Source of the DNA: Escherichia coli | GTDB lineage: Bacteria > Pseudomonadota > Gammaproteobacteria > Enterobacterales > Enterobacteriaceae | DNA: 64,000 nt | Assembly (NCBI RefSeq): GCF_003991155.1 | Contig: NZ_CP031293.1 | Reading direction: 5' to 3' (one strand) | Part shown: positions 58 to 4,516 of the stretch, piece after piece | Layout of the letters: each line of letters begins with the position of its first letter | Position numbering within the stretch: position 1 is the first letter of the stretch | Made by a program: the position numbers and the translations under genes | The notes under the pieces: generated by a model | Database searches by the model: none | What the model saw: only the letters and a program-made list of their open reading frames with translations | What the model was told of the DNA's origin: nothing

Positions 58-186
58 ATGAATACTAACGTTTTTCGACTGCTCCTGCTGGGAAGCCTGT
101 TCAGCCTTAGCGCCTGTGTGCAGCAAAGCGAAGTGCGGCAGATGAAACACAGCGTCAGCACACTGAACCAGGAGATGACGCAACTC
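58..186 (+). pseudogene. yajI: yajI 5' fragment (lipoprotein signal peptide and N-terminus), truncated by IS insertion
   Basis: ORF 58..246 starts with a lipoprotein-type signal (LLLGSLFSLSAC); the YajI-like reading stops matching after ...EMTQL at 186 and runs into IS sequence. The rest of the protein resumes in frame at about 1940. Confidence 0.75.
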
Positions 187-197
187 ATTGACATCCT

Positions 198-217
198 CCA
201 CGCCCTGAAGGACGTGG
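198..217. repeat. IS subterminal imperfect palindrome (right-end hairpin, tnpB side)
   Basis: ccacgccctgaaggacgtgg, about 11 nt inside the inferred end; same loop motif as the hairpin at 1899..1918. Confidence 0.6.
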
Positions 218-230
218 ATCCCTGCTACGT

Positions 231-1439
231 TCAGGCTGTCGCCTGAATCATTTCGGTGGGTTCCTGCTTCAACGGGCGGCCTGACTGCACCATCCCTCCA
301 CAGGCAAGAACGGCGTGCCCCGCCGCTAAAATGTTACGAGCGCCATTTACATCGGCGTTCGCTGTATATCCACATACCTGGCATCTGAATTGACTTTGTG
401 ACAGGCGATTTTCTTTCGCTGTATGACCACAGCACGTGCAACGCTGGCTTGTGTACGCTGGCGGAACAGCAAGCACCTGACCGCCACGCCAGAGCTGCTT
501 GTACTCAAGCTGGCGGCGCATTTCATACCAGCCCTGATCCAGTACCGAACGGTTTAAACCTGATTTTGCCCGGACATTGCGTCCCGGCTGGCTGACCGTA
601 CCCGCTGCTGACTTTGACATGTTGCTGACCTTCAAATCCTCAATGACTATCATTGCGTGGTTTTTGCTGACGGTCGTTGTGACTTTGTGAAGGTAGTCCC
701 TGCGGATATTTGCGATACGGGAATGCAGTCGCTGTATTTTGCGTTTCTGCTTCTGCCAGTTATTGCTGAATTCGACCTTGCGGCTTAACTGTCGCTGAAG
801 TCTCGCCAGCGTCTTCTGGTTTTTCTGAAAACTGTTTACAGGCTCAAAGACTGTGCCATCTGACAGCGTGGCGAGTTTAGCCACGCCAGCATCCAGCCCG
901 ACCATTGATGCTGAAGGGTGAACCGGAGTGGATACTTCACTTTCTGTCTGAATACTGATGTACCACTTACCGCAGGACTGGCTGACAGTGACATTTTTCA
1001 CAACACCCGTGACCTGACGGCTGTTCCGGTAGCGCATCCAGCCCAGTTTCGGCAGAAAAATACGGCTGTTTTCCTGATCGAGCTTAACGCCCTGCGGGTA
1101 GCGGAATGCATCATTCTGTCCCCGCTTTTTGAATCGGGGAAAAGCAGCCCGCTTCTGGAAGAAGTTTTTGTAAGCCCGCTCAAGGTCTTTCAGTGACTGT
1201 TGCAATGGCTGTGAGGGCGAATCTTTAAGCCATTGCGTTCCAGTGGCGTTTTTCCACTCAACCAGCCAGGAAGCCATTTTCCCGTAAGGGATGTATTTAT
1301 TACCGGCCTCATGATTCTCATTCTGAAGCGCCAGAGCACGATTGAAAACGAAACGACATGCGCCTGCGAAGCGCCTCATTTCATGCTCCTGTTGACCACC
1401 GGGTCTTAACTGGAATTTAAATGCCTGTAGTCGTTTCAC
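231..1439 (-). CDS. tnpB: TnpB (OrfB), IS605-family RuvC-like nuclease with C-terminal zinc finger; apparently intact, 402 aa
   Basis: Track ORF 231..1439. N-terminus [13 protein letters not shown] is typical of TnpB/OrfB; C-terminal CTCCGH...[18 protein letters not shown] is the zinc-finger/RuvC-III region. GTG start read at 1439. Confidence 0.85.
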
Positions 1440-1461
1440 AGGTCAAATTATATTTTGGTCT

Positions 1462-1973
1462 GTGAAAAAAGAAACCGATATCCGGCGTGGAAGGCATTGT
1501 GTTTTCCTGATGCATGTTCACCTGGTCTTTGTCCCAAATACCGACGCCAGATTTTTGACCATGACGCGACAGAAAAACTACGCACTTACTTTTCAAATGT
1601 ATGTGCTGATTTTGAAGCTGAACGGGTTGAAATGGATGGCGAACCAGATCACGTCCATTTGTTAATTAACTATCCTCCCAAACTGGCGATATCCAGTCTG
1701 GTAAACAGCCTCAAAGGTGTATCGGGTAGGTGACTGCGACGAGATCGACCAGATATTGCAGTCAGGTATTACTACAAAGGCGTTTTGTGGAGTCCTGGCT
1801 ATTTTGCCAGTAGCTGCGGAGGTGCGCCAATATCCGTCATCCGCCAATACATTGAACAACAGCAAACACCTGGTCAGGTGGAAAACCGCGCCTTATATCC
1901 CCGCCCTGAAGGACGGGGTTTTACGGCGCACCGGATAAAGAAACCGTCAAAATCACTCAGCAAAACAGGCTGA
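1462..1973 (+). pseudogene. tnpA: tnpA (IS200-like Y1 HuH transposase), disrupted by at least two frameshifts
   Basis: Transposase motifs are spread over three frames: HVHLVFVP (1462..1665), PKYRRQ...DHVHLLINYPPKLAISSLVNSLKG (1455..1733), WSPGYFASSCGGAPISVIRQYIEQQ (1785..1973). The first shift sits at the A-run in gtcccaaatacc. Confidence 0.8.
1899..1918. repeat. IS subterminal imperfect palindrome (left-end hairpin, tnpA side)
   Basis: ccccgccctgaaggacgggg, about 20 nt inside the inferred end. Confidence 0.6.
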
Positions 1974-2344
1974 ATGCAAAATCCAGCAGTGGGGTTTACC
2001 TTCTGCCTGGAGCGAAAACACCGGCAAGACTGGAAAGCCAGATCGGTACTTTACGTATGTCGCTAGTGAATATTACGCATGATACAGATGGCACCACCCT
2101 GACGCTACGTATTCAGGGCGAGTCGAATGACCCCTTGCCCGCATTCAGCGGAACTGTTGAATATGGGCAAATTCAGGGAACAATAGACAACTTTCAGGAA
2201 ATCAATTTGCAGAATCAATTGATTAATGCCCCTGCCAGCGTCCTCGTCCCCAGCGATGTTGATATTCCGTTACAGTTAAAGGGGATTTCTGTAGAACAGT
2301 TAGACTTTGTACGTATCCACGACATTCAACCTGTTATGCAGTAA
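1940..2344 (+). pseudogene. yajI: yajI 3' fragment (remainder of lipoprotein YajI)
   Basis: In-frame continuation ETVKITQQNRLNAKSSSGVYLLPGAK... leading into track ORF 2057..2344 (MSLVNITHDTDGTTLTLRIQGESNDPLPAFSG...). Confidence 0.75.
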
Positions 2345-2469
2345 ACGTATAGCGGGGCGATTTTGTGCGTCCCGCAACATCTTTTCCCGTCATTTTGTTA
2401 CTCCGCTTACATCACCTGGATTGATAGTAAAAGTTTGCAACAAGGGTGAAAGTCAGTACAATCCCCGCC

Positions 2470-2560
2470 CGAATGTGTGTAAACGTGAACGCAATCGATT
2501 ACGTAAATGATAGAACTGTGAAACGAAACATATTTTTGTGAGCAATGATTTTTATAATAG
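2470..2560 (+). promoter_or_regulatory. tsx promoter region with CRP/CytR-type TGTGA half-sites
   Basis: TGTGA motifs at about 2517 and 2537 and an AT-rich -10-like stretch upstream of the tsx start; tsx is a known CRP/CytR/DeoR-regulated gene. Confidence 0.45.
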
Positions 2561-2642
2561 GCTCCTCTGTATACGAAATATTTAGAAACGCAATTTGCGC
2601 CTTTTTCACTCCCGCAAGGGATTTTCAAACAGTGGCATACAT

Positions 2643-3527
2643 ATGAAAAAAACATTACTGGCAGCCGGTGCGGTACTGGCGCTCTCTTCGTCTTTTACTG
2701 TCAACGCAGCTGAAAACGACAAACCGCAGTATCTTTCCGACTGGTGGCACCAGAGCGTTAACGTTGTCGGAAGCTATCACACCCGTTTCGGACCGCAGAT
2801 CCGCAACGATACCTACCTTGAGTACGAAGCATTCGCTAAAAAAGACTGGTTCGACTTCTATGGTTATGCGGATGCGCCGGTATTCTTCGGCGGTAACTCC
2901 GATGCAAAAGGTATCTGGAACCACGGTTCTCCGCTGTTTATGGAAATCGAACCGCGTTTCTCCATCGACAAACTGACCAATACTGACCTTAGCTTCGGTC
3001 CGTTCAAAGAGTGGTACTTCGCGAACAACTACATTTACGACATGGGTCGTAATAAAGATGGTCGCCAGAGCACCTGGTACATGGGTCTGGGTACCGACAT
3101 CGATACTGGTCTGCCGATGAGCCTGTCCATGAACGTCTATGCGAAATACCAGTGGCAGAACTATGGCGCAGCGAACGAAAACGAGTGGGACGGTTACCGT
3201 TTCAAAATTAAATACTTTGTGCCGATTACCGATCTGTGGGGCGGTCAGCTGAGCTACATCGGCTTCACCAACTTCGACTGGGGTTCCGATTTAGGGGATG
3301 ACAGCGGTAACGCAATCAACGGTATTAAGACCCGTACTAATAACTCTATCGCTTCCAGCCATATTCTGGCTCTGAACTACGATCATTGGCACTACTCTGT
3401 CGTAGCTCGTTACTGGCACGACGGTGGTCAGTGGAACGACGATGCAGAACTGAACTTCGGCAACGGCAACTTCAACGTTCGCTCTACCGGCTGGGGTGGT
3501 TACCTGGTAGTAGGTTACAACTTCTAA
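2643..3527 (+). CDS. tsx: Nucleoside-specific outer-membrane channel Tsx
   Basis: Track ORF 2595..3527 contains [38 protein letters not shown]...; ATG at 2643 gives the 294-aa precursor ending in GYNF. Confidence 0.95.
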
Positions 3528-3999: not shown

Positions 4000-4281
4000 T
4001 TACCAGTGACGGCGAGGTTCCATCAGCTGATGAAGAATGCGCGCAATGAGAATGTCATCGACTCTTATAACGTAATAAACAGTGTGAAACCTAAATGCGA
4101 TCTTCTTTACCTCTGGAATCGCATCATAGTCTTGCCCTATCTCGGGCATTTGAGAGAGTGTATCCAGAAAAATGCCGAGAGAGTCGGTGTAGCGATCCGC
4201 CTGCTCCTCACCAAACTTTCCCAGCGTGTAGTCATAGATCCCTCTGAAATCTTCAACAGCTTTTCCGCTAAGCTTATACAC
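4000..4281 (-). CDS. parE: ParE/RelE-superfamily type II toxin (ParE-like)
   Basis: Track ORF 4000..4314; the likely start is the GTG at 4281 (VYKLSGKAVEDF...), overlapping the antitoxin stop by 8 nt. ParE-like pattern ...YKLS..A..D...IYDY......A.R.......L..MPE.G......P......R...Y.YY.IRVDD.I.IARILH. Confidence 0.75.
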   Translation of the reverse strand: MYKLSGKAVEDFRGIYDYTLGKFGEEQADRYTDSLGIFLDTLSQMPEIGQDYDAIPEVKKIAFRFHTVYYVIRVDDILIARILHQLMEPRRHW

Positions 4282-4516
4282 GATGTTTTTGCTTCCTTTC
4301 TGCTGCGATATCACGAAGCGTCATCGAACTTTCACCGCTCTCAAGACCTTCAATAACAGCATTTCTGACAGCTTCATCCCTGGATTCTTGTTGTTCCAAT
4401 AGACGAAGCGCTGAACGCATTACTTCACTGGCCGAGCCATAACGACCAGACTGGACCATCCGTGTAATAAAACTATCTAATTGTTCGCCAACGCTTACTG
4501 AGGTAATTTTGCGCAT
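4274..4516 (-). CDS. parD: ParD-family (RHH/CopG-like) type II antitoxin
   Basis: 80 aa, MRKITSVSVGEQLDSFITRMVQSGRYGSASEVMRSALRLLEQQE...; ATG at 4516 with a GGAGA ribosome-binding site 7 nt upstream; sits immediately upstream of, and overlapping, the toxin ORF. Confidence 0.8.
   Translation of the reverse strand: MRKITSVSVGEQLDSFITRMVQSGRYGSASEVMRSALRLLEQQESRDEAVRNAVIEGLESGESSMTLRDIAAERKQKHRV

Follow-up and report, generated by a model that had tools for sequence, protein, structure and literature searches.

An IS609 copy with an intact tnpB and a decayed tnpA within the lipoprotein gene yajI of Escherichia coli

The 64,000-nucleotide stretch of E. coli DNA analyzed here (the window) starts in the nrdR-yajI-tsx region, and its positions 188 to 1934 (1747 bp, minus strand when oriented by tnpB) are occupied by a copy of IS609 lying within the lipoprotein gene yajI. 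When the first 2400 bp of the window were used as a query, 100% identity was found in many complete E. coli chromosomes. In these identical genomes the RefSeq annotation divides the locus into two fragments of yajI (DUF3251), a full-length TnpB ('RNA-guided endonuclease InsQ/TnpB family protein') and a pseudogene of tnpA marked 'frameshifted; internal stop'. The insertion is already known and annotated, and it shows no departure from the description of its family. The features of the locus are the following:

58 to 187, plus strand: yajI 5' fragment, codons 1 to 43 and the first base of codon 44
172 to 187, minus strand: guide of 16 nt predicted from the ISDra2/Geobacillus mechanism, 5'-TGAGTTGCGTCATCTC, directly 3' of TTTAT in the empty site
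188 to 1934, minus strand: IS609 element, left end at 1934 and right end at 188
188 to 336, minus strand: predicted guide-RNA (omega RNA) scaffold, overlapping the tnpB 3' end and the right end
198 to 217, minus strand: right-end hairpin CCACGTCC-TTCA-GGGCGTGG (read on the same strand), separated from the end by 10 nt, with compensatory changes
231 to 1439, minus strand: tnpB (insQ), 402 aa, intact, divergent from tnpA
1434 to 1467, no strand assigned: palindrome of 17+17 nt, 82% complementary, covering the 22-bp tnpB/tnpA gap and both start codons
1462 to 1877, plus strand: tnpA pseudogene with a 1-bp deletion, an in-frame TGA and a lost stop
1899 to 1918, minus strand: left-end hairpin CCCCGTCC-TTCA-GGGCGGGG (read on the same strand), separated from the end by 16 nt
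1935 to 1939, minus strand: target or transposon-adjacent motif, ATAAA on the plus strand and TTTAT on the tnpB strand
1935 to 2344, plus strand: yajI 3' fragment, remainder of codon 44 to the stop

Joining position 187 to position 1935 yielded a 540-nt ORF, an intact yajI of 179 codons that agrees at every base across the junction with the unbroken gene of strain 88-3493. A preliminary description of this DNA had noted that the match to yajI breaks off after codon 43 and resumes in frame beyond the insert, and the join bears this out. The two halves do make up a known intact gene, as the site is uninterrupted in 5083 of 5426 complete E. coli genomes and carries this insertion in exactly 340. 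No target-site duplication was present, the empty-site join being exact. The ends were set by aligning seven copies at five sites together with the empty site, the six other copies coming from ydcO, yedK, yeaQ/yoaG and the TetR gene beside ytfB (four further sites). Similarity among the aligned copies starts at window position 188 (TTGACATCC...) and every copy is followed by ATAA(A/G). In plasmid-borne relatives with 78-95% identity, too, the match breaks off precisely at 188. The seven-copy alignment and the exact empty-site join thus place the limits of the element at 188 and 1934 and not at 187 and 1939 as first proposed, the ATAAA at 1935-1939 being the target.

The truncated yajI leaves an open frame of 62 codons (58..246, plus strand) that ends inside the IS right end, and this 62-aa remnant keeps the signal peptide and the lipobox (LSAC). 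Transcription from the yajI promoter would be antisense to the predicted guide RNA and to the tnpB 3' end.

On the tnpB strand the element is preceded by TTTAT and finishes in ...GGAGGATGTCAA, that is, in TCAA. The TTAT at the left end is invariant at the five independent insertion sites and is preceded by T or C (YTTAT). We looked for terminal inverted repeats in the element and found none, in agreement with the preliminary description. The two subterminal hairpins that it had pointed out at 198-217 and 1899-1918 were recovered as well: the CGCCCTGAAGGACG that they share occurs at these two places and nowhere else in the 64-kb window, where chance alone would give 0.36 matches. The hairpins form a 19/21 direct repeat in the same orientation, with folding z-scores of -2.9 and -2.8 on the minus strand, and they fold better on that (tnpB) strand because a T-G pair there replaces an A-C mismatch. 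With the ends at 188 and 1934, the hairpins stand 10 and 16 nt from them instead of the 11 and 20 nt previously estimated. Hairpins of this kind, the lack of inverted repeats and a motif at the left end are defining features of the IS200/IS605 family.

With the inserted DNA alone as query, 5015 of the 5426 complete E. coli genomes gave matches, most of them of 95-99% identity. These copies bear the names insQ or 'IS609 family transposase' and include the single K-12 IS609 (ydcO-ydcL). Over its full length the window copy is 97.2-98.5% identical to copies that RefSeq names IS609 or insQ, and the name IS609 used here rests on those labels, including that of the single K-12 copy (PMC5009759). The comparison supports the assignment of the insertion interrupting yajI to the IS200/IS605 family, and specifically to IS609, with tnpA (plus) and tnpB (minus) divergent as previously described. 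The K-12 ydcO-ydcL copy, composed of insQ and a tnpA pseudogene, shows 97.9% identity to the window copy over all 1747 bp and shares with it the divergent tnpA/tnpB layout, the ends, the TTAT target and the TGA codon in tnpA. The window copy differs in its location in yajI, in an extra 1-bp deletion in tnpA and in six private amino-acid changes in TnpB. As in IS609, the right end of IS608 finishes in TCAA; the IS608 target is TTAC. Relative to IS608 and ISGst, IS609 has TTAT rather than TTAC as target, and its tnpA and tnpB are divergent rather than co-directional. Peel-and-paste transposition, a scarless donor joint and subterminal hairpins are nevertheless common ground with these elements of Helicobacter pylori (IS608) and Geobacillus stearothermophilus (ISGst) (10.1101/2023.03.14.532601).

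Based on comparison with the ISDra2 TnpB structures, the 402-aa product of tnpB is homologous over residues 3-376 (E=1.3e-53). Residues D183, E267 and D363 align to the RuvC triad of ISDra2 TnpB (D191, E278 and D361), and C334, C337, C353 and C356 align to its zinc-finger cysteines C331, C334, C351 and C354. The protein matched NF040570 with 386 bits and three Pfam domains, HTH_OrfB_IS605, OrfB_IS605 and Cas12f1-like TNB. The earlier reading of a full-length TnpB with RuvC and zinc-finger regions holds, no inactivating changes being seen in the RuvC residues. The tnpB gene is intact and, as judged from these alignments, encodes an RNA-guided RuvC-type nuclease. In comparison with ISDra2 of Deinococcus radiodurans (TnpB structures 8exa, 8h1j and 8bf8), the catalytic D-E-D and the zinc cysteines are conserved in IS609 TnpB, whereas the motif is TTTAT/YTTAT in place of TTGAT (PMC8612924). 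Our literature search on the function of IS609 or InsQ TnpB returned only routine mentions, and the one paper in which an IS609 TnpB had been purified reported no details for it.

Concerning tnpA, the reference was the O157:H7 copy, which carries the annotation of an intact IS609 transposase of 143 aa and matched NF033573 (transpos_IS200) with 145.7 bits, as fits the Y1 (HUH) tyrosine transposase of the family. Against this reference, one A is missing from the window copy between 1533 and 1534 (GTCACCAAA changed to GTCCCAAA), and the frameshift that results lies upstream of HVHLL, the HUH motif. At 1731-1733 an in-frame TGA stands in place of TTA, and at 1875-1877 the ancestral stop TAG reads CAG, so that the frame continues across the left end and into the DNA beside it. 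The preliminary description was right in calling the gene decayed; its 'at least two frameshifts', the first placed at an A-run, resolve into one deletion, the TGA and the lost stop, and the missing A is a single base located beside a run and outside it. The general pattern that it recognized, a dead transposase accompanied by a preserved RNA-guided nuclease as described for the family, stands, with tnpA a pseudogene and tnpB intact.

The stop position of tnpA reads CAG in nine of the ten copies examined, and TAG is kept only in the O157:H7 copy. The yajI copy has its TTA-to-TGA codon in common with the ydcO copy of K-12 DH1, which could be due to shared ancestry, gene conversion or recurrence. 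The palindrome at 1434-1467 may, from its sequence and position, be a shared operator, promoter element or other regulatory site of tnpB and tnpA; a promoter scan near the tnpA/tnpB intergenic region gave nothing above chance.

We then considered the right end of the element as a source of guide RNA. In an alignment with the diverged plasmid homologues (78-95% identity), the last ~150 nt (188-336) are better conserved than the coding sequence just upstream. The consensus fold of 188-336 has 49 pairs, five of them with changes on both sides, among these some of the right-end hairpin and of the stem beside it, and paired cells amount to 95.9% as compared with 36-45% when the partners are slid; as these figures come from 10 related sequences and the fold was derived from the same sequences, the covariation is supportive only. 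The region 188-336 is thus predicted to fold as a guide-RNA scaffold with modest covariation. Rfam matches on the minus strand at 175-358 (HgcC, sot0042 and RAGATH-18) were all below gathering scores, and the RNA is therefore not assigned to any named family. In ISDra2 the right end is the source of the guide RNA, and the nuclease uses the motif at the left end as its target-adjacent motif (PMC8612924), and in Geobacillus elements the donor joint is cut by TnpB (10.1101/2023.03.14.532601). By analogy, a guide RNA formed from the tnpB 3' end and the right end of this copy would carry the flank 187..172 as its guide.

A putative history of the locus can be drawn on these grounds. Single-strand 'peel-and-paste' transposition very probably put IS609 immediately 3' of TTTAT in yajI, and the tnpB 3' end together with the right end would give a guide RNA having the adjacent 16 nt of yajI as guide. 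After excision, the restored yajI site (TTTAT followed by the same 16 nt) would be cut by TnpB, and repair from the sister chromosome would put the element back at the cut yajI. As the guide flank lies directly after TTTAT only in the empty site, TnpB could cut restored yajI and not the occupied locus, a distinction that we infer by analogy with the systems above. The proposal that the host has instead domesticated TnpB for a function of its own, such as nuclease-dead, RNA-guided regulation of the kind known from TldR proteins, could appeal to the several copies that keep tnpB without a working tnpA, yet we consider it extremely improbable. Neither the RuvC D-E-D triad nor the zinc finger is damaged, tnpB still lies between intact transposon ends, and the guide is whatever flanks each copy, with no conserved non-flank guide seen.

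Genome NZ_CP029747.1, identical to the window, was used to search for other IS609 copies. BLAST gave three IS609 'places' in this genome, of which two were located, the yajI and ydcO copies, and the tnpA check that the preliminary description had called for on all copies thus covers these two. In the ydcO copy insQ is intact and tnpA contains an internal stop. The yeaQ, yedK and TetR/ytfB sites were also examined in NZ_CP029747.1 for IS609 and all three are empty. A partial IS609 at yedK, considered during the search, belongs to another strain and is irrelevant to the genome of the window. As tnpA is dead in the window copy and in the only other located copy, the element is probably immobile in this genome. 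In mutation-accumulation lines of K-12 no IS609 transposition was observed (PMC5009759).

It is quite unlikely, in our judgment, that the element still moves by means of a TnpA supplied in trans from another IS609 or related copy, with TnpB retained in active use. In its favour, neither the ends nor the hairpins are damaged, and they hardly differ from those of other copies; an intact IS609 tnpA is present in the species (O157:H7, for instance), IS609-like elements are common on plasmids, and the third BLAST place in the same chromosome, additional to the located yajI and ydcO copies, may hold a working tnpA. However, the tnpA of the ydcO copy carries a stop, the three sites named above are empty and the insertion is fixed in 340 genomes belonging to two sequence clades. 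We regard yajI::IS609 as most likely immobile, a fixed lineage marker in those 340 sequenced genomes, and its TnpB may have nothing to act on in the genome of the window.

By sequence, the 340 genomes carrying the left junction form two groups, one of 95 genomes at 99% identity or more and one of 245 at 98.3%. Strain 222, of the second group, carries both the 1-bp deletion and the TGA in tnpA, and its tnpB is cut to 385 aa. The two tnpA lesions that it shares with the clade of the window indicate that the death of tnpA preceded the split of the groups. We considered whether the two clades had acquired the insertion independently at this site and rejected this, since the junctions are identical and the deletion and TGA are common to the window clade and strain 222. 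The yajI copy of strain 190693 has neither of these two lesions, and its tnpA shows instead a TAT-to-TAA stop, as does the ydcO copy in the genome of the window. Strains 190693 and 222 show no differences in the 540 nt of their yajI flanks and 28 differences inside the IS. Identical flanks around a differing IS interior, together with the shared TAA stop, indicate, at the level of sequence comparison, gene conversion between IS609 copies.

The whole element could also be an inert fossil in which tnpB is open merely for want of time, TnpB and the guide RNA being non-functional here, a reading that we find doubtful while granting it some weight. The tnpB changes private to the window copy are six non-synonymous and one synonymous, so purifying selection on tnpB is seen for the family with no sign of it in this copy. 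TnpB was unlisted under the junction in 10 of 40 sampled rows from yajI::IS609 genomes, about a quarter, and the one such genome inspected, strain 222, has the truncated TnpB mentioned above. With no working tnpA found in the same genome, there is perhaps no donor joint to cut. On the other hand, the tnpB frame has at least 385 codons in all ten copies, whereas tnpA has a stop, a frameshift or a lost stop in eight of the ten. The pairwise dN/dS of tnpB among copies is 0.19-0.67, the catalytic and zinc residues are intact, and the scaffold region shows zero differences between the window copy and that of strain 190693. We hold it very probable that yajI::IS609 arose by peel-and-paste transposition and now consists of a dead tnpA and an intact tnpB with a putative guide RNA derived from the flank, the element being most likely immobile.

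A stronger proposal, that IS609 tnpB and its guide RNA are kept by selection in E. coli lineages devoid of a working IS609 transposase, seems to us very unlikely. If true, it would imply a role independent of transposition, such as driving gene conversion between IS609 copies or guarding the occupied locus, and the repeated independent knock-outs of tnpA (TGA, TAA, 1-bp deletion) would be part of the transition.

Beyond annotation, the insertion has little importance. It shows that 340 of the 5426 sequenced E. coli genomes can do without yajI, and it can serve as a clean marker of lineage. This copy also illustrates, in a natural setting, the general tendency of tnpB to outlive tnpA, and its exact ends, YTTAT motif and predicted 16-nt guide make it a handy copy for testing native E. 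coli TnpB activity.

Two other observations were made in the surroundings. A ParE/RelE-family toxin gene (4000-4314, minus strand) and a ParD antitoxin gene (4274-4516, minus strand) lie between yajD and secF and are annotated as such in an identical RefSeq genome; K-12 is not known to have a ParE/ParD pair between these two genes. Finally, at 1.95-2.0 Mb of NZ_CP029747.1 the gene order around the replication terminus, from sodC to pntB, is inverted with respect to K-12.
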